From Eledone cirrhosa (taxonomy: Eukaryota), in contig OZ024741.1 of NCBI GenBank assembly GCA_964016885.1, positions 354,144,001 to 354,208,000 of the forward strand: a DNA stretch of 64,000 nt. The letters run 5' to 3'. Shown one piece after another: positions 1 through 56,489 of the stretch (its first letter is position 1; every line of letters begins with the position of its first letter). Made by a program: the position numbers and the translations under genes. The notes beneath the pieces were generated by a model. It was not told the origin of the DNA, searched no databases, and saw only the letters and a program-made list of their open reading frames with translations.

Positions 1-3000
1 ACCACCAACACCACTATCACACCACTACTACCAACAACACTACCACACCATTACCACCACCAACACTATCACACCACTACCACCAACAACACTACCACAC
101 CACTACCACCAACACCACTATCACACCTCTACCACCAACAACACTATCACACCACTACCACCAACAACACTACCACACCACTACCACCAACAACACTACC
201 ACACCACTACCACCAACACCACTATCACACCACTACCACTAATACCACCACTATCACACCATTACCACCAATAAAACTACCACACCACTACCACCACCAA
301 TAAACCTACCACACCACTACCACCAACACCACTATCACATCACTACCACCAACACCACTATCACACCATTACCACCAACAACACTACCACACCACTACCA
401 CCAACACCACTATCACACCACTACCACCAACACCACTATCACACCACTACCACCAACACCACTACCACCAACACCACTATCACACCAGTACCACCAACAC
501 CACTATCACACCACTACTACCAACACCACTATCACACCACTACCACCAACAACACTACCACACCACTACCACCAACACCACTATCACACCACTACCACCA
601 ACACCACTATCACACCACTACCACCAACAACACCACTACCACACCATTACCACCAACAACACTACCACACCACTACCACCAACACCACTATCACACCACT
701 ACCACCAACACCACTATCACACCACTACCACCAACACCACTACCACCAACACCACTATCACACCAGTACCACCAACACCACTATCACACCACTACTACCA
801 ACACCACTATCACACCACTACCACCAACAACACTACCACACCACTACCACCAACACCACTATCACACCACTACCACCAACACCACTATCACACCACTACC
901 ACCAACACCACTACCACCAACACCACTATCACACCACTACCACCAACAACACTATCACACCACTACCACCAACACCACTATCACACCACTACCACCAACA
1001 CCACTACCACCAACACCACTACCACCAACACCACTATCACACCATTACCACCAACAACATTACCACACCACTACCACCAACACCACTACCACCAACACCA
1101 CTATCACACCATTACCACCAACAACACTACCACACCACTACCACCAACACCACTATCACACCACTACCACCAACAACACTACCACACCACTACCACCAAC
1201 ACCACTATCACACCACTACCACCAACACCACTATCACACCACTACCACCAACACCACTACCACCAACACCACTATCACACCACTACCACCAACAACACTA
1301 TCACACCACTACCACCAACACCACTATCACACCACTACCACCAACACCACTACCACCAACACCACTATCACACCATTACCACCAACAACACTACCACACC
1401 ACTACCACCAACACCACTATCACACCACTACCACCAACAACACTATCACACCACTACCACCAACACCACTATCACACCACTACCACCAACACCACTACCA
1501 CCAACACCACTATCACACCACTACTACCAACAACACTACCACACCATTACCACCACCAACACTATCACACCACTACCACCAACAACACTACCACACCACT
1601 ACCACCAACACCACTACCACACCACTACCACCAACAACACTACCACAACACTACCACCAACACCACTATCACACCACTACCACCAACACCACTATCACAC
1701 CACTACCACCAACACCACTATCACACCACTACCACCAACACCACTACCACCAACACCACTATCACACCACTACCACCAACACCACTATCACACCACTACC
1801 ACCAACACCACTACCACCAACACCACTATCACACCACTACCACCAACAACACTATCACACCACTACCACCAACACCACTATCACACCAGTACCACCAACA
1901 ACACTACCACACCACTACCACCAACAACACTACCACACCACTACCACCAACACCACTATCACACCACTACCACTAATACCACCACTACCACACCACTACC
2001 ACCAACAACACTACCACACCACTACCACCAACAACACCACTACCACACCACTACCATAAATACCACTACCACACCACTACCGCCACCAACAACACTATCA
2101 CACCACTACCACCAACACCACTACCACACCACTACAACCAACACCACTATCGCACCACTACTACCAACAACACTACCACACCATTACCACCACCAACACT
2201 ATCACACCACTACCACCAACAACACTACCACACCACTACCACCAACACCACTACCACACCACTACCACCAACAACACTACCACAACACTACCACCAACAC
2301 CACTATCACACCACTACCACCAACACCACTATCACACCACTACCACCAACACCACTACCACCAACACCACTATCACACCACTACCACCAACAACACTATC
2401 ACACCACTACCACCAACACCACTATCACACCACTACCACCAACACCACTATCACACCATTACCACCAACAACACTACCACACCACTACCACCAACACCAT
2501 TATCACACCACTATCACACCACTACCACCAACACCACTACCATCAACACCACTATCACACCAGTACCACCAACACCACTATCACACCACTACCACTAATA
2601 CCACCACTATCACACCACTACCACCAACAACACTATCACACCACTACTACCACCAACAACACTATCACACCACTACCACCAACACCACTATCACACCACT
2701 ACCACCAACACCACTATCACACCATTACCACCAACAACACTACCACACCACTACCACCAACACCACTATCACACCACTACCACCAACACCACTATCACAC
2801 CACTACCACCAACACCACTACCACCAACACCACTACCACCAACACCACTATCACACCACTACCACCAACAACACTACCACACCACTACCACCAACACCAC
2901 TATCACACCACTACCACCAACACCACTATCACACCACTACCACCAACACCACTACCACCAACACCACTATCACACCACTACCACCCACACCACTATCACA

Positions 3001-4410
3001 CCACTACCACCAACACCACTATCACACCACTACCACCAACACCACTATCACACCAGTACCACCAACACCACTATCACACCACTACCACCAACACCACTAT
3101 CACACCACTACCACCAACACCACTATCACACCACTACCACCAACACCACTACCACAACACTACCACCAACAACACTACCACACCACTACCACCAACACCA
3201 CTATCACACCACTACCACCAACAACACTACCACACCACTACTACCAACACCACTATCACACCACTACCACCAACACCACTATCACACCACTACCACCAAC
3301 ACCACTATCACACCACTACCACCAACACCACTATCACACCACTACCACCAACACCACTATCACAAACAACACTACCACACCATTACCACCAACACCACTA
3401 TCACACCACTTCCACCAACACCACTATCACACCACTACTACCAACACCACTATCACACCACTACCACCAACAACACTACCACACCACTACCACCAACACC
3501 ACTATCACACCACTACCACCAACACCACTATCACACCACTACCACCAACACCACTATCACACCACTACCACCAACACCACTATCACAAACAACACTACCA
3601 CACCACTACCACCAACACCACTATCACACCACTACCACCAACACCACTATCACACCACTACCACCAACACCACTATCTCACCACTACCACCAACACCACT
3701 ATCACACCACTACCACCAACACCACTATCACACCACTACCACCAACACCACTATCACAAACAACACTACCACACCACTACCACCAACACCACTATCACAC
3801 CACTACCACCAACACCACTATCACACCACTACCACCAACACCACTATCACACCACTACCACCAACACCACTATCACACCACTACTACCAACACCACTATC
3901 ACACCATTACCACCAACAACACTATCTCACCACTACCACCAACACCACTATCACACCACTACCACCAACAACACTATCACACCACTACCACCAACACCAC
4001 TATCACACCACTACCACCAACACCACTATCACACCACTACCACCAACACCACTATCACACCACTACCACCAACACCACTACCACCAACACCACTATCACA
4101 CCAGTACCACCAACACCACTATCACACCACTACCACCAACACCACTATCACACCACTACCACCAACACCACTATCACACCACTACCACCAACACCACTAT
4201 CACACCACTACCACCAACACCACTACCACCAACACCACTATCACACCACTACCACCAACACCACTATCACACCACTACCACCAACACCACTATCACACCA
4301 CTACCACCAACACCACTATCACACCACTACCACCAACACCACTACTACCAACACCACTATCACACCACTACCACCAACACCACTATCACACCACTACCAC
4401 CAACACCAAC
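1..4410. repeat. Minisatellite array, ~26-bp unit ACCACTACCACCAACACCACTATCAC with shorter variants; truncated by window start
   Basis: Continuous tandem reiteration visible in the sequence; almost no G on the + strand. Confidence 0.97.
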
Positions 4411-7090: not shown

Positions 7091-7144
7091 CCTCGCTCTT
7101 GGGCACCGAAACGAGTAATTGGATGTCCCCGCGCATACATACAT

Positions 7145-7570
7145 AGATATGTTGTTTGGGACCACACATTGAAAACGTGCTCTGCTGTAGAGATCAGTTG
7201 CCCACATGATGTCAACGTTGTAAGAAAAAAAAAGGAGGACATCTACGGACCATTGATGAGGAGTTTGCAGATCCAGTATCCAAGACACACTTTCAGCTTC
7301 ATACCCATGATTATTGGAGCTACCGGTTATATACCAACCCACTTGGACCAAAGTATAACTGAACATGGAGTTGTGGACAAAGAGCGCAGCTCCCTAATTC
7401 ATAGACTCAAATGGCTGCGATAGCTGGCACCTTCAAAATTTGCAAAACATTCTTGCGATTCAAGGGATGACAATTTCTTTTCTTTAACAAACTTGCCACC
7501 AGGAAGGTGGCCAGTCAAAAATGTACTCGAAATTAAGAGAAAGAGAAACACATACATACATGCATACATA
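7145..7570 (+). mobile_element. 3' end of an R4/Dong-like non-LTR retrotransposon (restriction-like endonuclease C-terminus) with (CATA)n tail
   Basis: Translation VEISCPHDVNV..K..IYGPLMRSLQIQYP..F.FIPMIIGATGYIP..., then GTFKICKTFL after a frameshift; clade assignment from recalled family motifs. Confidence 0.7.
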
Positions 7571-8832: not shown

Positions 8833-9340
8833 CATAATTAAATAAAGATAAAAATAAAAATGCCGTAGGCTTTACAATACAACGGGGGGAAACATAATAG
8901 TACCACTGGTGATGTCACAGATGTGTGACGAAAGAACTTTGATAGACTATATATATATATGTGTGTGTGTGTGTATTTTTAACCGTTGGTCAATCAATGA
9001 TAAACATTGATTGCCAGATAGATTAACTATGGAGATATAAAAGATGCAGAAGCGAAAACCAGCCCAAACCAAACAGTGACTGCGTTTTATTATTATTTCT
9101 GGCAAAATTATAACAATATGATTAAGTTAAGAATGTACATCCACATATGTATACTGAAATACTAGTATGCATATGAATACACACACGTGTACATATGTAG
9201 ATGTACCGAGTTTTTCACTGGTCACTTTACTGTGAGTGTCCAGCTATTCTGTATGTAAACACACAGACAAACCGGTTTTTAGAGTCATACTGGTTTTTGA
9301 GGAAACACCTTTCCTCTATTCTCCAGAAAGCCAGACAAGG

Positions 9341-9385
9341 AATATTGGACTAGTTTCGATGTTGTTACATCTCATCAGCAATATT
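9341..9385 (-). ncRNA. Minimal type I hammerhead ribozyme (mirror copy in left arm)
   Basis: Exact reverse complement of 9666-9710. Confidence 0.88.
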
Positions 9386-9665
9386 TACCCATCTTCCGGC
9401 CTTTCTAGAGAATCGTAAAAGCACATATCGTTATATGCTTTTTCTATGAAAATTAGTAGTGGGCAGACTAATTTGCATAGAGCGTGAGTACGTACCGGTT
9501 CAACGCAAAATTTAATTTCGTTTCGTTATTTGTTTTTATCGTCTCCGTTGAACCGGTACGTACTCACGCTCTATGCAAATTAGTCTGCCCACTACTAATT
9601 TTCATAGAAAAAGCATATAACGATATGTGCTTTTACGATTCTCTAGAAAGGCCGGAAGATGGGTA

Positions 9666-9710
9666 AATATTGCTGATGAGATGTAACAACATCGAAACTA
9701 GTCCAATATT
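9666..9710 (+). ncRNA. Minimal type I hammerhead ribozyme
   Basis: Stem I AATATTG/CAATATT, core CTGATGA, stem II GATGT-aaca-ACATC, GAAA, palindromic stem III region ACTAGT, GTC cleavage triplet ending at 9703. Confidence 0.88.
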
Positions 9711-10029
9711 CCTTGTCTGGCTTTCTGGAGAATAGAGGAAAGGTGTTTCCTCAAAAACCAGTATGACTCTAAAAACCGGTTTGTCTGTGTGTTTACATAC
9801 AGAATAGCTGGACACTCACAGTAAAGTGACCAGTGAAAAACTCGGTACATCTACATATGTACACGTGTGTGTATTCATATGCATACTAGTATTTCAGTAT
9901 ACATATGTGGATGTACATTCTTAACTTAATTGTTTAAGCGTCAGTCATACAAAAGTGAGTTACAAACGAAACAAAATTTAATTTCGTTTCGTTATTTGTT
10001 TTTATAACAATATGACCCTCCCCAAATAT

Positions 10030-10268: not shown

Positions 10269-10424
10269 GTTTCTCCGACGATCAGCTCAAGGCAGGATCT
10301 ATTACAGATCGATCTGATGCGGATGAAATGCTTTGAAAGCGCAAAACATATCTGAGAACCTTGCGAATGTAGAGTCAGGTTCGATCTGTAATAGATTCTG
10401 CCTTGAGCTGATCGTCGGAGAAAC
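10269..10424. repeat. Inverted repeat, ~44-bp arms, ~68-bp spacer
   Basis: GTTTCTCCGACGATCAGCTCAAGGCAG(G/A)ATCTATTACAGATCGA present in both orientations, 1 mismatch. Confidence 0.9.
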
Positions 10425-20790: not shown

Positions 20791-21160
20791 TGGCAGTATC
20801 GGTAGAGGGTTGGACGCCATGCTTTCTAGCATAGTTACGTCCCTTTACGGTCTGAGTTCAAATCCCGCCGAGGTTGACTTTGCCTTTCATCCTTACGGGG
20901 TCGATAAAATAAAGTGCCAGTAACGTACTGGGTAATTGCTGGCCTTGAGCCAAAAGTAGAAACAATTATGTATGTATATATAATTGTTTCTACTTTTTGG
21001 CTCAAGGCCAGCAATTTACAGTACATTACTGGTACTTTATTTTATCGATCCCGTAAGGATGAAAGGCAAAGTTAACCTCAGCGGGATTTGAACTCAGAAT
21101 GGCAAGGGCCGTAACTCTATGCGTCAAAGCATGGCGTCCGACCCTCTACCGATACTGCCA
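20791..21160. mobile_element. Two SINE family A copies, tail-to-tail inverted
   Basis: TGGCAGTATCGGTAGAGGG at 20791 and CCCTCTACCGATACTGCCA ending at 21160. Confidence 0.88.
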
Positions 21161-24466: not shown

Positions 24467-24540
24467 CTGAAATGAGAATATTAATAATAATATTAATAAC
24501 ATATTTTAAAAGGATTGACGTAACTCTCCACAAAGGTAAA

Positions 24541-24927
24541 TAAACAATACGAAGAGCGCGATGCGATTGCAATAGATTTATTGAACAATATTTTGACAGT
24601 TAGTCTGTCTTTGTCGAGTTCAGAATGAAAAGTGATAAAAATTCAAAATTATGGAAATTCAAATCCGAAGTATGAACGAGGCCAACCTGCGCCCCCATGA
24701 GGAAAAAAAGGATTTGAATTTACATAGAACTGTTTGATTAAATATTCTTTTTCCTTTTCTTCTTTTTTCCCTGTGTGGACGTGTTGGCCTCATTCATATT
24801 TGGATTAGAATTTCTGTAATTTTGAATTTTTATCGCTTTTCATTCTGAACTCGACAAAGACAGACTAACTGTCGAAATATCGTTCAATAAATCTATTGCA
24901 ATCGCATCGCGCTCTTCGTATTGTTTA
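24541..24927. mobile_element. Fold-back MITE with ~145-bp TIRs, TA-flanked
   Basis: TAAACAATACGAAGAGCGCGATGCGATTGC... and its reverse complement ending at 24927. Confidence 0.9.
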
Positions 24928-26433
24928 ATATTAATAACAATAATAATAATGATTTCTACTATAGACACAAGGCCAGCAATTTTGGAGGGAGTGGAAAATT
25001 GATTAAATCGACCCCAGTGCAATACTGGTACTTTATTTTATCGACCCCGTAAGGATGAAAGGCAAAGTTAACTTCAGCAATAAAATATATGTATGTAGGT
25101 GTTTAGTTTAAACAACCAATTTCTTCCAGAGAAGGAAAGAGAAGTGTGAAAGAGATATAGAGGAAAATTAATCCCACTGATACTTTTTTATAAACTGCAA
25201 AAGGATTAAAGGCAAAGTTGACCTCAATGAGTTTTGAACTCAGAGCGCAGAGAGCTGGAACAAATACCACAAAACATTCTATTCAAATTTCTAATGCCAA
25301 TGCACTGCCTATAATATTAGAATAGTCACAGGAAAAAGGAAGAAGACTTTGCTACTTGACAGTTCTGAAAACTATCCAATAAAAGAACAACAATACCAAT
25401 AAAAGAACAACAAAGAAATTTTAAACAAAATAATGAAAATGTTGAAAGTTATCTGTGCCAGTAATACAGTAACATATTAAAATTTTATTACTTTTCAGAT
25501 AAGTATTGTATTGCAAATGTTTACACAAAAAGTCAATTGCTTACCACATAGAGACAGACAACAGTGAAATCACCTCCAAACAAATTCATCTACCACCTCC
25601 AACAGCAATAAAAGAAATGGCAAACAATACAAATGAAAGCTGTATTATTCAGTCCATGTATCCCTGCATGTTGTAAGAAGTGATTAAAAGGGTTGGTGTC
25701 ATGATGGGCATCCAGTTGTAAAATGCTGTTTCAAAAAATCCCATCTAACCCATGCTAGCATGGAAAAGTCAGCATGATGATGATGAGATGCTTCTAGTTA
25801 TCTCTACATTCTGATTTTTATACTTGCATAACAACTTTCTGCTTTTGAGAATATATCTACTTAAACCAGTTTGTCTATGGGGATCCAAAGTTACTTTTAG
25901 ATCAGGGTTATTTTTTCTCCAGATATTATTTTAGTCACGTCTAATGAAATACAAGGATACTGTGTACCTATTCTAAACTACATACTTATGGCCTATATGA
26001 TGACTAAAAACATAAACAATCTCCATAAAAATAGATGTCTTAGGAATGATTTTAAAATGTAGACATACATAATCAAAATCTCAGCGTATATACATACACT
26101 GTACCTGATTTAGAGAACTAAGCACTACTAGGCACTGCATATTACATAGGGTACTTGCAATACAATAGCAAAAGACAAAAAATGCTGCACATATCCAAAG
26201 CACATGCTGTTGTGTTTTATTATGTGCTTTCACTGTACAACTAAAGCAATAATAAGACTATTTATAATAATAATTCTAATATAACATGACTGTATCGTAT
26301 TACTAATCTGACTGATATTATTTCATGAACCGCAAAAGAATGAAAGACAAAGTGAATCATGGCACAAACATGAAAAGACTTAAACTCAGAGCATAAAAAG
26401 ATGCAAATAAATACAATAATATGATAATAATAA

Positions 26434-29225: not shown

Positions 29226-29447
29226 GACAAAGAAGAAGTGGAAAATATGGCGAATCAATAAAAGCAAAGATGATGATCATACAGTAAAGAAGTGCTGTGA
29301 TAGAAAAAAAGGTGTACAATCCATGCAAGCAAGGAAAAAAAAGAAAAGAAAAATGTGGTGATGATGTTTATGATGGTATGTATAAGAACGTTGTTGTTGT
29401 TGTGGTAACGGTGGTAAGGAGGAGGAGTAGCAGTACAAGTGACAAAA

Positions 29448-32400
29448 ATATAACAGACATTATAATGACACCAATATAACAGACATTATCATGACACCAA
29501 TATAACAGACATTATCATGACACCAATATAACAGACATTATAAAGACGCCAATATAACAGACATTATCATGACACCAATATAACAGACATTATCATGACA
29601 CCAATATAACAACAGACATTATCATTACACCAATATAACAGACATTATCATGACACCAATATAACAGACATTATCATGATACCAAAATAACAGACATTAT
29701 CATGACACTAATATAACCACAGACATTATCATGACACCAATATAACAGACATTATCATGACACCAATATAACAGACATTATCAAGACACCAATATAACAA
29801 CAGACATTATCATGACACCAATATAACATACATTATCATGACACCAATATAACAGACATTATCATGACACCAATATAACAACAGACATTATCATGACACC
29901 AACATAACAGACATTATCATGACACCAATATAACAGACATTATCATGACACCAATATAACAACAGACATTATCATGACACCAATATAACAGACATTATTA
30001 TGACACCAATATAACAACAGACATTATCAAGACACCAATATAACAGACATTATCAAGACACCGATATAACAGACATTATCAAGACACCAATATAGCAGAC
30101 ATTATCATGACACCAATATAACAGACATTATCATGACACCAATATAACAGACATTATCATGACACTAATATAACAGACATTATCATGACACCAATATAAC
30201 AGACAGTATCAAGACACCAATATAACAGACATTATCATGACACTAATATAACAGACATTATCATGACACTAATATAACAGACATTATCAAGACACCAATA
30301 TAACAACAGACATTATCATGACACCAATATAACATACATTATCATGACACTAATATAACAGACATTATCAAGACACCAATATAACAGACAGTATCAAGAC
30401 ACCAATATAACAGACAGTATCAAGACACCAATATAACAGACATTATCATGACACTAATATAACAGACATTATCATGACACCAATATAATAGACATTATCA
30501 AGACTCCAATATAACAGACATTATCATGACACCAATATAACAGACATTATCAAGACATCAATATAACAGACATTATCAAGACACCAATATAACAACAGAC
30601 ATTATCAAGACACCAATATAACAGACATTATCATGACACCAATATAACCACAGACATTATCATGACACCAATATAACAACAGACATTATCAAGACACCAA
30701 TATAACAGACATTATCAAGACACCAATATAACAGACATTATCATGACACCAATATAACAGACAGTATCAAGACACCAATATAACAGACATTATCATGACA
30801 CTAATATAACAGACATTATCATGACACCAATATAACAGACATTATCATGACACTAATATAACAGACATTATCAAGACACCAATATAACAGACATTATCAA
30901 GACACCAATATAACAGACATTATCATGACACCAATATAACAGACATTATCAAGACACCAATAACAGACATTATCAAGACACCAATATAACAGACATTATC
31001 ATGACACCTATATAACAGACATTATCAAGACACCTATATAACAGACATTATCAAGACACCAATATAACAGACATTATCATGACACCAATATAACAACAGA
31101 CATTATCAAGACACCAATATAACAGACATTATCATGACACCAATATAACAGACATTATCAAGACACTAATATAATAGACATTATCAAGACACCAATATAA
31201 CAGACATTATCATGACACCAATATAACAGACATTATCATGACACCAATATAACAACAGACATTATCAAGACACCAATATAACAGACATTATCATGACACC
31301 AATATAACAGACATTATCAAGACACCAATATAACAACAGACATTATCAAAATACCAATATAACAGACATTATCATGACACTAATATAACAGACATTATCA
31401 TGACACCAATATAACAGACATTATCAAGACTCCAATATAACAGACATTATCATGACACCAATATAACAGACATTATCAAGACATCAATATAACAGACATT
31501 ATCAAGACACCAATATAACAACAGACATTATCAAGACACCAATATAACAGACATTATCATGACACCAATATAACAGGCATTATCATGACACCAATATAAC
31601 AGACATTATCAAGACTCCAATATAACAGACATTATCAAGAATCCAATATAACAGACATTATCAAGACACCAATATAACAGACATTATCATGACACCAATA
31701 TAACCACAGACATTATCATGACACTAATATAACAGACATTATCAAGACACCAATATAACAGACATTATCATGACACCAATATAACAACAGACATTATCAA
31801 GACACCAATATAACAGACATTATCAAGACACCAATATAACAGACATTATCATGACACCAATATAACAGACATTATCATGACACCAATATAACAGACATTA
31901 TCAAGACACCAATATAACAACAGCCATTATCAAGACACCGATATAACAGACATTATCAAGACACCAATATAACAGACATTATCATGACACCAATATAAGA
32001 CATTATCATGACACCAATATAACCACAGACATTATCAAGACACCAATATAACAGACATTATCATGACACCAATATAAGACATTATCAAGACACCAATATA
32101 ACAACAGACATTATCAAGACACCAATATAACAGACATTATCATGACACCAATATAACCACAGACATTATCAAGACACCAATATAACCACAGACATTATCA
32201 AGACGCCAATATAACCACAGACATTATCATGACACCAATATAACAACAGATATTATCATGACACCAATATAACAGACATTATCATGACACCAATATAACA
32301 GTCATTATCATGACACCAATATAACAGTCATTATCATGACACCAATATAACAGACATTATCATGACACCAATATAACCACAGACATTATCATGACACCAA

Positions 32401-35400
32401 TATAACAGACATTATCATGACAACAATAAAACAGTCATTATCATGACACCAATATAACAGACATTATCATGACACCAATATAACAGACATTATCATGACA
32501 CCAATATAACCACAGACATTACCATGACACCAATATAACAACAGACATTATCAAGACACCAATATAACAGACATTATCAAGAATCCAATATAACAGACAC
32601 TATCAAGACAGCAATATAACAGACATTATCATGACACCAATATAACCACAGACATTATCATGACACTAATATAACAGACATTATCAAGGCACCAATATAA
32701 CAGACATTATCATGACACCAATATAACAGACATTATCATGACACCAATATAACAGACATTATCAAGACACCAATATAACAACAGCCATTATCAAGACACC
32801 AATATAACAGACATTATCAAGACACCAATATAACAGACATTATCATGACACCAATATAAGACATTATCATGACACCAATATAACCACAGACATTATCAAG
32901 ACACCAATATAACAGACATTATCATGACACCAATATAAGACATTATCAAGACACCAATATAACAACAGACATTATCAAGACACCAATATAACAGACATTA
33001 TCATGACACCAATATAACCACAGACATTATCAAGACACCAATATAACCACATACATTATCAAGACACCAATATAACCACAGACATTATCATGACACCAAT
33101 ATAACCACAGACATTATCATGACACCAATATAACAGACATTATCATGACACCAATATAACAGTCATTATCATGACACCATAACAGACATTATCATGACAT
33201 CAATATAACAGACATTATCATGACACCAATATAACAACAGACACTATCAAGACACCAATATAACAACAGACATTATCAAGACACCAATATAACAGACATT
33301 ATCAATACACCAATATAACAGACATTATCAAGACACCAATATAACAGACATTATCATGACACCAATATAACCACAGACATTATCAAGACACCAATATAAC
33401 CAGAGACATTATCAAGACACCAATATAACAGACATTATCATGACAACAATATAACCACAGACATTATCATGACACCAATATAACAGACATTATCATGACA
33501 CCAATATAACAGACATTATCATGACACCAATATAACAACAGACATTATCATGACACCAATATAACAGATATTATCATGACACCAATATAACAGACATTAT
33601 CATGACACCAATATAACAGACATTATCAAGACACCAATATAACAACAGACATTATCATGACACCAATATAAACACAGACATTATCAAGACACCAATATAA
33701 CCACAGATATTATCATGACACCAATATAACAGACATTATCATGACACCAATATAACAGACATTATCAAGACACCAATATAACAGACATTATCATGACACC
33801 AATATAACAGACATTATCAAGACACCAATATAACCACAGACATTACCATGACACCAATATAACCACAGACATTATCAAGACACCAATATAACCACAGACA
33901 TTATCATGACACCAATATAACAGACATTATCAAGACACCAATATAACCACAGACATTATCATGACACCAATATAACAGGCATTATCATGACACCAATATA
34001 ACAGACATTATCATGACACCAATATAACAGACATTATCAAGACACCAATATAACCACAGACATTATCATGACACCAATATAACCACAGACATTATCAAGA
34101 CACCAATATAACCACAGACATTATCATGACACCAATATAACCACAGACATTATCAAGACACCAATATAACCACAGACATTATCATGACACCAATATAACA
34201 GACATTATCATGACACCAATATAACAGACATTATCAAGACACCAATATAACCACAGACATTATCAAGACACCAATATAACCACAGACATTATCAAGACAC
34301 CAATATAACAGACATTATCAAGACACCAATATAACCACAGACATTATCGTGACACCAATATAACAGACATTATCATGACACCAATATAACAGACATTATC
34401 AAGACACCAATATAACCACAGACATTATCATGACACCAATATAACCACAGACATTATCATGACACCAATATAACAGACATTATCATGACACCAATATAAC
34501 AGACATTATCATGACACCAATATAACAGACATTATCATGACACCAATATAACAGACATTATCATGACACCAATATAACAGACATTATCAAGACACCAATA
34601 TAACCACAGACATTATCATGACACCAATATAACCACAGACATTATCATGACACCAATATAACCACAGACATTATCATGACACCAATATAACCACAGACAT
34701 TATCATGACACCAATATAACAACAGACATTATCAAGACACCAATATAACCACAGACATTATCAAGACACCAATATAACAGACATTATCAAGACACCAATA
34801 TAACCACAGACATTATCATGACACCAATATAACAGACATTATCATGACACCAATATAACAGACATTATCAAGACACCAATATAACCACAGACATTATCAT
34901 GACACCAATATAACAGACATTATCATGACACCAATATAACAGACATTATCGAGACACCAATATAACCACAGACATTATCAAGACACCAATATAACAGACA
35001 TTATCAAGACACCAATATAACCAGACATTATCATGACACCAATATAACCACAGACATTATCATGACACCAATATAACAGACATTATCATGACACCAATAT
35101 AACAGACATTATCATGACACCAATATAACAGACATTATCAAGACACCAATATAACCACAGACATTATCATGACACCAATATAACCACAGACATTATCATG
35201 ACACCAATATAACCACAGACATTATCATGACACCAATATAACCACAGACATTATCATGACACCAATATAACAACAGACATTATCAAGACACCAATATAAC
35301 CACAGACATTATCAAGACACCAATATAACAGACATTATCAAGACACCAATATAACCACAGACATTATCATGACACCAATATAACAGACATTATCATGACA

Positions 35401-37413
35401 CCAATATAACAGACATTATCAAGACACCAATATAACCACAGACATTATCATGACACCTATATAACAGACATTATCATGACACCAATATAACAGACATTAT
35501 CGAGACACCAATATAACCACAGACATTATCAAGACACCAATATAACAGACATTATCAAGACACCAATATAACCACAGACATTATCATGACACCAATATAA
35601 CAGACATTATCATGACACCAATATAACAGTCATTATCATGATACCAATATAACCACAGACATTATCAAGACACCAATATAACAGACATTATCAAGACACC
35701 AATATAACCACAGATATTATCATGACACCAATATAACCACAGACATTATCATGACACCAATATAACCACAGACATTATCATGACACCAATATAACAGACA
35801 TTATCATGACACCAATATAACAGACATTATCATGACACCAATATAACAGACATTATCATGACACCAATATAACAGACATTATCATGACACCAATATAACC
35901 ACAGACATTATCAAGACACCAATATAACCACAGACATTATCATGACACCAATATAACAACAGACATTATCATGACACCAATATAACAGACATTATCATGA
36001 CACCAATATAACAGACATTATCATGACACCAATATAACAACAGACATTATCAAGACACCAATATAACAGACATTATCAAGACACCAATATAACAGACATT
36101 ATCATGACACCAATATAACCACAGACATTATCATGACACCAATATAACAGACATTATCATGACACCAATATAACAGTCATTATCATGACACCAATATAAC
36201 AGACATTATCAAGACACCAATATAACCACAGACATTATCATGACACCAATATAACAGTCATTATCATGACACCAATATAACAGACATTATCAAGACACCA
36301 ATATAACCACAGACATTATCATGACACTAATATAACAGACATTATCATGACACCAATATAACAGACATTATCAAGACACTAATATAACAGACATTATCAT
36401 GACACCAATATAACAGACATTATCATGACACCAATATAACCACAGACATTATCATGACACTAATATAACAGACATTATCATGACACCAATATAACAGACA
36501 TTATCATGACACCAATATAACAGACATTATCAAGACACCAATATAACCACAGACATTATCAAGACACCAATATAACTACAGACATTATCATGACACCAAT
36601 ATAACAACAGACATTATCAAGACACCAATATAACCACAGACATTATCATAACACCAATATAACAGACATTATCATGACACCAATATAACCACAGACATTA
36701 TCATGACACTAATATAACAGACATTATCATGACACCAATATAACAGACATTATCATGACACCAATATAACAGACATTATCAAGACACCAATATAACAGAC
36801 ATTATCATGACACCAATATAACAGACATTATCAAGACACCAATATAACCACAGACATTATCAAGACACCAATATAACCACAGACATTATCATGACACCAA
36901 TATAACAGTCATTATCATGACACCAATATAACAGACATTATCAAGACACCAATATAACAGACATTATCATGACACCAATATAACAGACATTATCAAGACA
37001 CCAATATAACAGACATTATCATGACACCAATATAACAGTCATTATCATGACACCAATATAACAGACATTATCATGACACCAATATAACCACAGACATTAT
37101 CAAGACACCAATATAACCACAGACATTATCATGACACCAATATAACCACAGACATTATCAAGACACCAATATAACCACAGATATTATCATGACACCAATA
37201 TAACCACAGACATTATCATGACACCAATATAACAGACATTATCATGACACCAATATAACCACAGACATTATCATGACACCAATATAACCACAGACATTAT
37301 CATGACACCAATATAACAGACATTATGATGACACCAATATAACCACAGACATTATCATGACACCAATATAACAACAGACATTATCATGACACTAATACAA
37401 CAGACATTACCAA
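29448..37413. repeat. ~8-kb minisatellite, 26-bp unit ACAGACATTATC(A/T)..: ACAGACATTATCATGACACCAATATA, with 29-bp variants; about 290-300 units
   Basis: Direct observation; lies in the last NEMF intron. Confidence 0.98.
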
Positions 37414-40468: not shown

Positions 40469-40533
40469 TAAAGCAGTCTGTGCTTCATTTAATTAATTTT
40501 TGAAATTAATTAAATGAAGCACAGACTGCTTTA
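40469..40533. repeat. Perfect 31-bp-arm palindrome with 3-nt loop
   Basis: TAAAGCAGTCTGTGCTTCATTTAATTAATTT-ttg-AAATTAATTAAATGAAGCACAGACTGCTTTA. Confidence 0.95.
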
Positions 40534-53766: not shown

Positions 53767-55334
53767 CTACCAAAACAAAAAGAAATACAATAAAAGGTTG
53801 AATCAGTCAAGTTAATGTCTTCATATCATTCTAAAATATTTTCATTCATGCCATAAGTCAGTAATCTTTGCAAACAGTGTTCTCTCTTTGTATAGGTTAA
53901 TGACAGAGAAGTGTTGCAAGGCAGTACAAAACTGCTTTAGGCCCTGGGAATGAAGGAGATGATCTGCTCAAAATTTAAGGGGGCTGAAAGGTTTTCGTTG
54001 AGGGAAGAAGCATCAGATATTCATGGGCTCTTCCTTGACTTTGGGCTTATGTACCAGCTGTTTATATATCTTACATTATTTAAAGACATCATCATCATCA
54101 TCACCATCTAATATCTATTTTCCCTGCTAGTAAGGGTTGGACAAGTTGTAACAGACAATATCAGTACTTAACTGGAGCCACTAATCTCTCAGATATGTAA
54201 GCGAGATCAGGTCCTGGCCTATGTTCATTTTTATCATGGCATCAGCACTAGCGAGGTCATTACATCCCTAACACAACTGAACAGTCCTCGCTACCCTTTG
54301 TCTGATAAGGTTCCAATGGCTGATACCCTTCCTATCACCAACTACTTCACAGAATGTACTGGCTGCATTTTATCAAGTCACCAAAACTAGAGAGGTTGTT
54401 GTGCCGTTGACACATCTGAAGAAGCCTTAACAGAACTTCTAATCAATCAAGTTTTCAAACTTAAAACATGTTTAAATATTGTTTTATTTATAGGACACTG
54501 TGATTTCTTTCACAGATACAAGTACCACTTACACATCTCTCTTTTGTCATGAATAGATATACTGTTATTTTGTTTATACATAAATATGTTTCAGTGATAA
54601 CAATTATAAGAATAGTGATAATGGGTGATGGTAAAGGGATTGAATACAGACAGATTAAATGCCACACCGCACTGCACTGTGGTGTTGCACAGAGAACAGA
54701 TAGATGAGAGGATGTAGGGGTATAGCAGATAGGGCAATAGATGGAAATGAGGATATGGACTTAATAGGAGTGTACTGTGCAAGAAGCTATGCTTGCATGG
54801 GTGGGCAAGTCTTCTCCAGCATCACTTGTCACTAATCATTGTAGTACTTTGTCATTTTTGTCATAAGATCTATCTTCTTGAAGACAGCTTTCACCACATA
54901 CTCCCATGTTTTCCTGGGTTTCCCTCTTTCACAGGTTATATCCACTAACATACAGAAACACATTAATACAAATGAGAAAGCAAGAAATCGTTTATGTTGT
55001 TTTGAAAAGAGAGAAAGGGCAATGCCAGATATAGTGGGTGAGAATGTGTGTCAGTGTGTACATGCCTTCAAATTTTCTAAAGATTTATGGTAGCATAGAG
55101 AATATGTGCTTGAAAAAGGGATATGTTGGGAGTTGGTACACAAACCAAAAAGGTGAAATAATTAATAAGCTTAGTAAATCCCTCTCAGATCTTCATTAAT
55201 TAATTAAGAAACAGTGTATTTCATTAAAAATATGGTAATGAAAGAGTTAAATACTAACAAATATTAATGAAGCTTAGCTTCTGCAATCATATTAACAACT
55301 GATGTTTTCAACAATAGTAGCAAAAATTACTTAC

Positions 55335-55693
55335 TTTTCGCCACTGTAACTCAAACTAATGTTTGTATCTGGAAATGTTACTTCATCAGAATATTTGCTC
55401 CAACTGACAGATTTCTTTTTATTTTTATTATTAACTGAACCTGTTGAATCAGATTCCTCTTCATCAGCATCATCAGCATCAGCATCATCTTCATTTTTGG
55501 TCTGAAATTTGGCTACCTCTTCATCAACCTTAGTTTCATCTTCGCTGCCTTCACTCTGAGAATCTTCATCCATTGAGACTATTTTATCTTCATCTAGTTC
55601 AGTGACTTCAGGTGTATCCTTCAAGTCTGATGAATCTTCAATTTCCCGCACCTTCCGTTCACCAGTATGACGAAACACACTGCCTTCCTCCAG
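55335..55693 (-). CDS. NEMF: NEMF exon: LEEGSVFRHTGERKVR..acidic tract..FPDTNISLSYSGE
   Basis: RH.GERKVR and FPDT motifs; CAG/GTAAG. Confidence 0.93.
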
Positions 55694-56489
55694 CTGAAGA
55701 GGAGACAAAATTAACATTAGATATAAAGGGACAATTTCATCCTTTCAAGGTTGATAAAAAAAACAAGTACCAGTCCAATACTAAGGTTGATTATTCTTCT
55801 ATATCTCTTTCTCACTTCTTCTGTCAGGTTTAAAATGCCCCCTAAATGCCATATGACAATACATCTACACCACTCCACCAGGAGTTATGGTTCCTTACAT
55901 ACATAAACAGACAAATCATCATTTAACATCTATTTTCCAAATGTAAAGCAAAATGAAGAAAGTGAATATGACAAAGAAGGAAAAAAGTGATAAAATATGT
56001 AAAGTGTTAAGGGATATGATAGAAGTGAAAATTGTGGAGAAGTGAATGGAAAAGGAAATTGCAGAAAGAAACAGAGAAAGAAGAAGAGATGAGAGAAATG
56101 AAGAACAAAAGTCATCATCCTGCATTTACAATAAGATATACACAGGTCTCTGCAAACACATGCATATTTGTACACAACCATATAAGCCATAACCTACAGG
56201 CCACATCCCACAAGTCACAACCTACAAGTCACAACCTACAAACCACATCCTACAAACAACACCATATTAGCCACACTCTACAAACCTCACCCTACAGGCC
56301 ACACCCTATAGGCCACACCTTACAGCCCACACCTCAACAATCCACATCCTTCAGGCCACACACCCAATCCACACCCTACAGACCACACCCTGCATGTACC
56401 TATGTACAGACATATTTAACATGGCTCTTATTCTGAAATGATTTTCAAAAAGAAAAGTAAGAGGAAAAGAACTACATTGAAACACTCAC

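Follow-up and report, generated by a model that had tools for sequence, protein, structure and literature searches.

A compact insertion in the genome of Eledone cirrhosa raises the question of which RNA it was copied from. It holds slightly more than one copy of a candidate 466-nt unit, with the same 34 nt at either end, and the original prediction had explained this by reverse transcription that began by microhomology at the target and ran a little more than once through a circular or tandem hammerhead RNA. The window referred to below is the whole 64-kb stretch of DNA that was analysed.

Anatomy of the insertion

The whole insertion measures 880 bp and consists of an inverted partial copy of the unit followed by a direct copy of 1.07 units (table 1). 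As read from the sequence, the insertion terminates on both sides in a 3' end of the unit. The two arms stand head-to-head and their complementarity does not extend inward; compared with the direct copy, the inverted arm is shorter by 6 nt on its 5' side and by 71-75 nt on its 3' side. The spacer of the palindrome had been equated with the 34 nt at 9506-9539, and this needs correction: the arms end at 9505 and 9546, which gives a spacer of 40 nt (9506-9545). The direct repeat of these 34 nt was described accurately, being exact over its full length, extendable on neither side and 466 nt apart from start to start. When 9506-10005 was shuffled 1000 times by mononucleotide, no shuffle contained an exact direct repeat longer than 13 nt, and the longest repeats averaged 8.6 nt.

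The last four bases of the repeat (TTAT) do overlap the 14-nt target-site duplication (TSD), and because they are common to both, the right end of the element lies somewhere in 10001-10005. The TSD, in which 12 of the 14 bases are A or T, brackets the whole structure. A segment of 30-34 nt is present at both ends of the direct copy; the extension found at the right end only is nevertheless 71-75 nt long (9931-10001/10005), not 34. Seven bases across the left edge of the TSD (9103-9109) are identical to the first seven of the 34-nt repeat (9972-9978, also 9506-9512), which may reflect a shared endonuclease or priming motif, or chance in AT-rich DNA. The insertion is young.

Table 1. Features of the 880-bp insertion; positions are counted from the first base of the window
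Feature	Position	Strand	Basis or remark
Left TSD copy	9108-9121	+	Exactly equal to 10002-10015, not extendable; base 9121 common with the inverted arm
Inverted partial copy of the unit (equivalent to 9546-9930)	9121-9505	-	385/385 nt complementary
Inverted-arm hammerhead of type I (core 9348-9378)	9325-9396	-	Rfam Hammerhead_HH9 and pattern match
34-nt terminal segment, upstream copy (Penelope-type tail), at the 5' end of the direct copy	9506-9539	+	100% identical to 9972-10005
Six spacer bases, direct copy only	9540-9545	+	Spacer of 40 nt = 34-nt copy + 6 nt
Candidate 466-nt non-coding unit	9540-10005	+	36% GC, strongly self-paired
Type I hammerhead, canonical layout	9655-9726	+	Rfam Hammerhead_HH9 and pattern match
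Segment of 41 nt occurring once only, from the end of the inverted-arm equivalent up to the 34-nt repeat	9931-9971	+	
Predicted 3' stem-loop, A/C-rich 5' arm	9965-9993	+	Whole-unit fold; repeat boundary 9971/9972 inside that arm
Terminal 34-nt segment, last 4 nt overlapping the right TSD	9972-10005	+	
Right TSD copy	10002-10015	+	Exactly equal to 9108-9121

A blastn search with 9506-10015 returned no second copy in the 64-kb window, only the locus itself and short low-complexity matches, and neither a tandem array nor a partner ORF was found there by blastn; the junction 9539/9540 is therefore seen once.

The unit and its relation to PLEs and retrozymes

The hammerhead ribozyme motif that had been proposed was recovered in both arms. 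Hammerhead_HH9 scores 37.3 bits in each (E 1.4e-7), below its gathering score of 52, and at gathering thresholds Rfam gives no match in the window; the hammerhead core pattern matches twice in the element and not once in 100 shuffles. The plus-strand motif has an intact CUGAUGA core (9673-9679), a GUC site and three helices: helix I of 6-7 bp with an internal loop, helix II of 4-5 bp, and helix III (9697-9702) of only 2 bp, which is palindromic and so self-complementary. Self-cleavage is predicted at 9703/9704. From its sequence the motif fits the canonical, dimer-dependent form of animal type I hammerheads as outlined in PMC4209133. Cofolding two hammerhead cores did not predict an active dimer, which counts neither way, as energy models rarely give the catalytic fold. 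Bacterial and archaeal genomes contain no match to the exact 31-nt hammerhead pattern, which agrees with an animal origin.

The unit is non-coding and holds no coding remnant, the longest stop-to-stop frame of its circularised form being 60 aa. No Pfam family matched any of the eight element frames tested (26 frames of at least 20 aa were listed), and without an ORF for RT and GIY-YIG endonuclease the element does not belong to the autonomous Penelope-like elements (PLEs). The 52-aa frame that runs over the junction (9508-9663) has no homologue among proteins of 28-91 aa or of 92-2000 aa; its one weak match among 1.84 billion representatives (E 8e-4, 27% identity, a protein of 905 aa, residues 181-208, in four stretches) was taken as chance.

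The unit folds far better than its composition would give, with a circular-fold z of -9.2 against 60 shuffles, and all nine control stretches lie between -1.85 and +0.85. The circle is no more stable than the linear form (-148.5 vs -155.0 kcal/mol), a closing helix is predicted at 9562-9567/9955-9960, and pairs across the junction in the circular fold have a probability of at most 0.34, so that folding lends no support to a native junction. The 3' stem-loop is not significant when folded alone (z = -1.34; 20 of 200 shuffles fold equally well). A read-through transcript of the locus is predicted to be ~93% paired; together with the presence of one hammerhead per strand, this identifies the locus as a reverse-transcribed product and not as a donor of circles. 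Such read-through would give a 385-bp hairpin, which may be a source of silencing small RNAs. Matches to miRNA families were far under their thresholds and reflect the palindrome. We also discarded a reading as a Pol III SINE, for which no A or B box was found, and one as a MITE, against which the head-to-head arms, the unequal ends and the 14-nt TSD speak.

The head-to-head inverted and 5'-truncated copy, the type I hammerhead and a TSD of the variable-length kind at an AT-rich site are structural traits of PLEs, and we consider a PLE-type origin of the insertion very likely. Inverted 5'-truncated copies, tails of 30-40 bp and non-autonomous forms are reported for PLEs in PMC8557442, and pairs of opposite-strand hammerheads 100-700 bp apart in PMC4209133; PMC8969392 and PMC9977147 confirm the general background. 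Short repeated ends, an inverted 5' copy and hammerheads on opposite strands are thus already known PLE features.

The original prediction compared the repeat with the short 3' tail of Drosophila Penelope, and the likeness is closer than it had claimed. According to the legends of Fig. 1A and Fig. 1C of Schostak 2008 (PMC2377424), Penelope of the D. virilis group has a single ORF unit between two direct 34-bp repeats, and tandem copies lie within inverted terminal repeats; its 5' 34-bp repeat lies at the start of the ORF, in native sequence, according to the same source. Both elements have one unit bounded by two direct 34-nt repeats, an inverted copy at the 5' side and a TSD. In the Eledone insertion, however, only 432 nt separate the repeats, with no RT-endonuclease ORF, and the 5' repeat lies where the inverted arm gives way to the direct copy; the likeness is one of structure.

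With the animal non-LTR retrozymes, as characterised in passages of PMC7229834 and bioRxiv 10.64898/2026.07.22.740005, the element shares a canonical type I hammerhead with a short palindromic helix III, and a non-coding, self-paired unit of a few hundred nt with GC below 45% and a TSD longer than 4 bp. The same passages propose that these retrozymes derive from PLE pLTRs and are moved by PLEs, and record solo monomers, which the bioRxiv study also counts. A head-to-tail tandem of at least two units, which marks retrozymes, is absent here: the locus holds 1.07 direct units and no dimer or multimer, there is no other copy in the 64 kb, and a circular RNA of it is putative. The insertion is accordingly not filed as an active retrozyme; arrays of its family may exist elsewhere, this copy being a solo monomer. 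A further difference is the full PLE-style inverted arm with terminal redundancy, which those passages do not describe for retrozymes.

Adineta vaga Pen2a and related EN+ PLEs offer another parallel, with a shorter, head-to-head inverted pLTR, a tail of ~31 bp, TSDs of 8-10 bp (mostly given as about 9-10 bp), solo pLTRs that also have TSDs, and non-autonomous forms (PMC3846280); here, in contrast, the centre is a 40-nt non-palindromic spacer, not an overlap or palindrome, and the one-sided extension reaches 71-75 nt. Poseidon of Anolis carolinensis, studied in vitro (PMC11167929), also has an AT-rich target, uses both strands, which are nicked and extended, and carries its hammerhead upstream of a stem-loop at the tail boundary. 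Its two fixed start sites lie in an A/C-rich stem-loop, ~85-92 nt past the hammerhead cut by our computation, are used independently of homology, and tolerate a dead hammerhead. In the Eledone insertion the tail boundaries lie 269 and 302 nt past the predicted cut, with a 4-nt overlap between the right end and the target. We found no description of the element family in the literature searched; it may already be catalogued in Repbase or Dfam.

Candidate templates and priming

The insertion is probably a retrozyme-like monomer, that is, a non-autonomous PLE derivative whose native 466-nt unit was copied 1.07 times from an RNA of more than unit length. An autonomous PLE would have supplied, in trans, the RT and GIY-YIG endonuclease that moved this non-coding unit with its single type I hammerhead. 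The endonuclease would nick both strands of the AT-rich site, 14 nt apart, and the right-hand nick would prime reverse transcription within the U-rich sequence that directly follows the terminal stem-loop on its 3' side, with 4-nt pairing perhaps helping. On an RNA longer than one unit, the enzyme could then copy 466 nt, cross the native junction, and stop, or have its product trimmed, 34 nt further on at the upstream boundary of the tail. Either twin priming, with the other nick serving as a second primer, or folding back of the cDNA would yield the inverted arm, and the pieces would be joined without in-register microhomology; none is present where the direct and inverted parts join. For twin priming in PLEs, the literature searched contained no relevant description.

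What the 34 nt mean depends on the junction 9539/9540 having been present in the RNA. Analogy with Penelope, whose 5' repeat lies in native context at the start of the ORF, favours a native junction. Against the reading as a native 466-nt unit stand the 5' end of the inverted arm (9546), which is 6 nt from the junction, so that a linear RNA starting near 9540 would be simpler, the one-sided extension, whose 71-75 nt exceed the published 30-40, and the hammerhead score under the Rfam gathering value (37.3 vs 52) together with a 3' stem-loop that is not significant alone.

The part of the original prediction that had the RT run slightly more than once through the unit is upheld as far as the PLE-type hammerhead class goes, whereas its circle cannot be separated, at this locus alone, from a tandem transcript or an end-to-end jump. 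Among templates of more than unit length we tentatively prefer, over a circle, an uncleaved head-to-tail transcript of a donor array elsewhere. The palindromic 2-bp helix III is of the dimer-dependent type, the Anolis PLE uses unprocessed RNA and can dispense with hammerhead cleavage (PMC11167929), and of nine Xenopus retrozyme dimers eight stayed uncleaved in vitro and one was cleaved (bioRxiv 10.64898/2026.07.22.740005). Fixed ends in other copies had been put forward as evidence against the idea, but PLE tails should have them on a tandem template too, so they are no refutation of it.

A covalently closed 466-nt hammerhead RNA, round which the RT ran 1.07 times, is a rather doubtful template within the same reading. 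The canonical type I layout is shared with animal retrozymes that do yield circular RNAs, as had been claimed, namely those of coral, mussel and axolotl (PMC7229834); self-pairing is strong (z = -9.2), 466 nt is near the 150-450 bp and inside the 51-972 bp given in the retrozyme literature, and the observed end is one of just two among 466 positions with a 4-nt TSD overlap. One hammerhead per strand at the locus, on the other hand, would not release a monomer by double cleavage, so that a donor elsewhere has to be assumed; the ~93% pairing of a read-through transcript and the lower stability of the circular fold (-148.5 vs -155.0 kcal/mol) also weigh against a circle, an intact hammerhead in the DNA suits an uncleaved transcript equally well, and in PMC11167929 no reads of the Anolis PLE ended at the hammerhead cut. 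The complete form of this idea, in which the locus is the footprint of target-primed copying of a covalently closed 466-nt circle by a PLE enzyme that went round once and overshot by 34 nt to the base of its own binding stem-loop, leaving a full Penelope signature (a tail at either end, an inverted arm and a 14-nt TSD), we regard as somewhat unlikely. If true, it would tie retrozyme circles mechanistically to the PLE machinery and make the PLE tail an overshoot of rolling-circle copying. Circular templates are themselves a published idea, hammerhead circles having been proposed for more-than-unit copying in 2014 and 2020 (PMC4209133 and PMC7229834). Their link with PLEs and the overshoot origin of the tail have likewise been proposed in print, and the literature examined contained no demonstration.

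A template jump is unlikely. In this reading the enzyme ran off the 5' end of a linear 466-nt RNA starting near 9540, resumed at the 3' end or the fixed start site of that molecule or of a second one, and added 34 nt; the unit length would then be real, the junction made by the RT, and the DNA product the same as from a template of more than unit length. End-to-end template jumping of this kind is known for R2-type RTs. Leaving the 34-nt block aside, the 5' ends of both copies lie within 6 nt of each other (9540 and 9546), and the predicted closing helix would hold the 5' end close to the tail on the 3' side. That Penelope may have either one or two copies of its 34-37-bp repeat at the 3' end also suggests re-initiation (PMC2377424). 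The jump, however, would need a landing point precisely on the final base of the overlap with the TSD, the sense strand near 9540 has neither RNA polymerase III boxes nor a TATA motif, and a fold-back whose loop measures 40 nt accounts for 5' ends that almost coincide without an RNA 5' end. It is distinctly less probable that we are looking at a truncated autonomous PLE, its direct copy a randomly 5'-truncated 3' end (pLTR region), its upstream 34 nt the result of re-initiation and the figure of 466 meaningless. Most PLE insertions are 5'-truncated (PMC8557442) and most PLE hammerheads are single motifs in truncated copies (PMC4209133), and there is no tandem copy in the 64-kb window; against this, no trace of an ORF end or start and no Pfam match was found, and the junction frame has no homologue except the weak match at E 8e-4, negatives that are weak for untranslated regions, and the hammerhead is canonical, not of the minimal layout that most autonomous animal PLEs have (PMC4209133). 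An assembly or library artefact (a fold-back chimera) or a DNA-level rearrangement after insertion is very improbable as the source of the palindrome: the 100% identity of the arms is what fold-back chimeras or polishing would give, but the structure as a whole is enclosed by an exact 14-nt TSD, has asymmetric ends and shows the layout of published PLE forms, and a similarly built element with mismatched arms lies at 24488-24939.

Priming by microhomology, the other part of the original proposal, fares differently at the two ends. Of the 466 unit positions, two, 9995 and 10005, overlap the start of the TSD by 4 nt; the observed end coincides with one of them. With an exact fixed start site, such an overlap would arise by chance in 150 of 5889 AT-rich targets (2.5%), and with any site in the unpaired tail in 988 of 5889 (17%). 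At the left end the overlap is 1 nt, and at least 1 nt is reached at 188 of 466 positions. Given these chance levels, microhomology priming has modest support and is plausible at the right end, whereas the left end lends it none; the start of the Anolis PLE at fixed sites without homology also speaks against it. The left arm's final 4 nt occur again out of register, 3 nt before 9972; as 26 of 466 arm starts (5.6%) would match too, this was rejected as evidence of fold-back microhomology.

The insertion bears on how PLEs make their partial tandems, tails and inverted arms, and on retrozyme circles, which the literature examined proposes as transposition intermediates. A young, ORF-free copy of 880 bp in which every junction can be read is a compact substrate for testing copying from circular RNA, and a genome-wide collection of its relatives would reveal if the junction is native and if the ends are fixed; the single locus adds an example, not a mechanism.

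A second inverted insertion and other features of the window

An unrelated PLE-like inverted insertion occupies 24488-24939, with a 14-nt duplication at its ends (24488-24501 and 24926-24939). Its inverted match (24541-24927) is 85% identical overall, with two mismatches in the outer 92 bp, and its one-sided 39-nt tail (24502-24540) is of the textbook form. The recurrence of a 14-nt TSD and a one-sided tail suggests that the PLE-like inverted architecture is routine in this genome. A variant-core minimal hammerhead-like motif lies at 24846-24886, where Rfam gives no hammerhead match within the insertion; the descriptor was widened after the motif had been seen, and in this form matches three times in the window (twice in the main element, once at 24846-24886), against 0.175 per 51-kb simulation. 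A 9-nt piece of the tail recurs in the centre of this insertion (p = 0.03, weak). Both TSDs (9108-9121 and 24488-24501) are 14 nt long and AT-rich and have a 6-base word in common, hinting at a common target preference.

The window has ~35% GC outside two satellites, is rich in microsatellites and dispersed repeats, and has the character of animal genomic DNA, its repeats resembling those of octopuses. A 110-aa frame at 7091-7423, which we take to resemble the restriction-like endonuclease end of a non-LTR retrotransposon, has no significant Pfam match, and an acidic exon-like frame at 55331-55744 (minus strand), possibly part of a host gene and perhaps URI1-like, matched neither a Pfam family nor any of the longer proteins searched. 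The two satellites are long (1-4408 and 29440-37409), with a period of 26 and its multiples and a strong strand skew. A short MITE-like element with imperfect terminal inverted repeats is located at 10269-10424 near two long TA runs, two inverted copies of a dispersed repeat form a near-palindrome at 20791-21160 (88% over ~370 bp), and a 65-bp hairpin at 40469-40533 stands beside a 13-nt tandem duplication.
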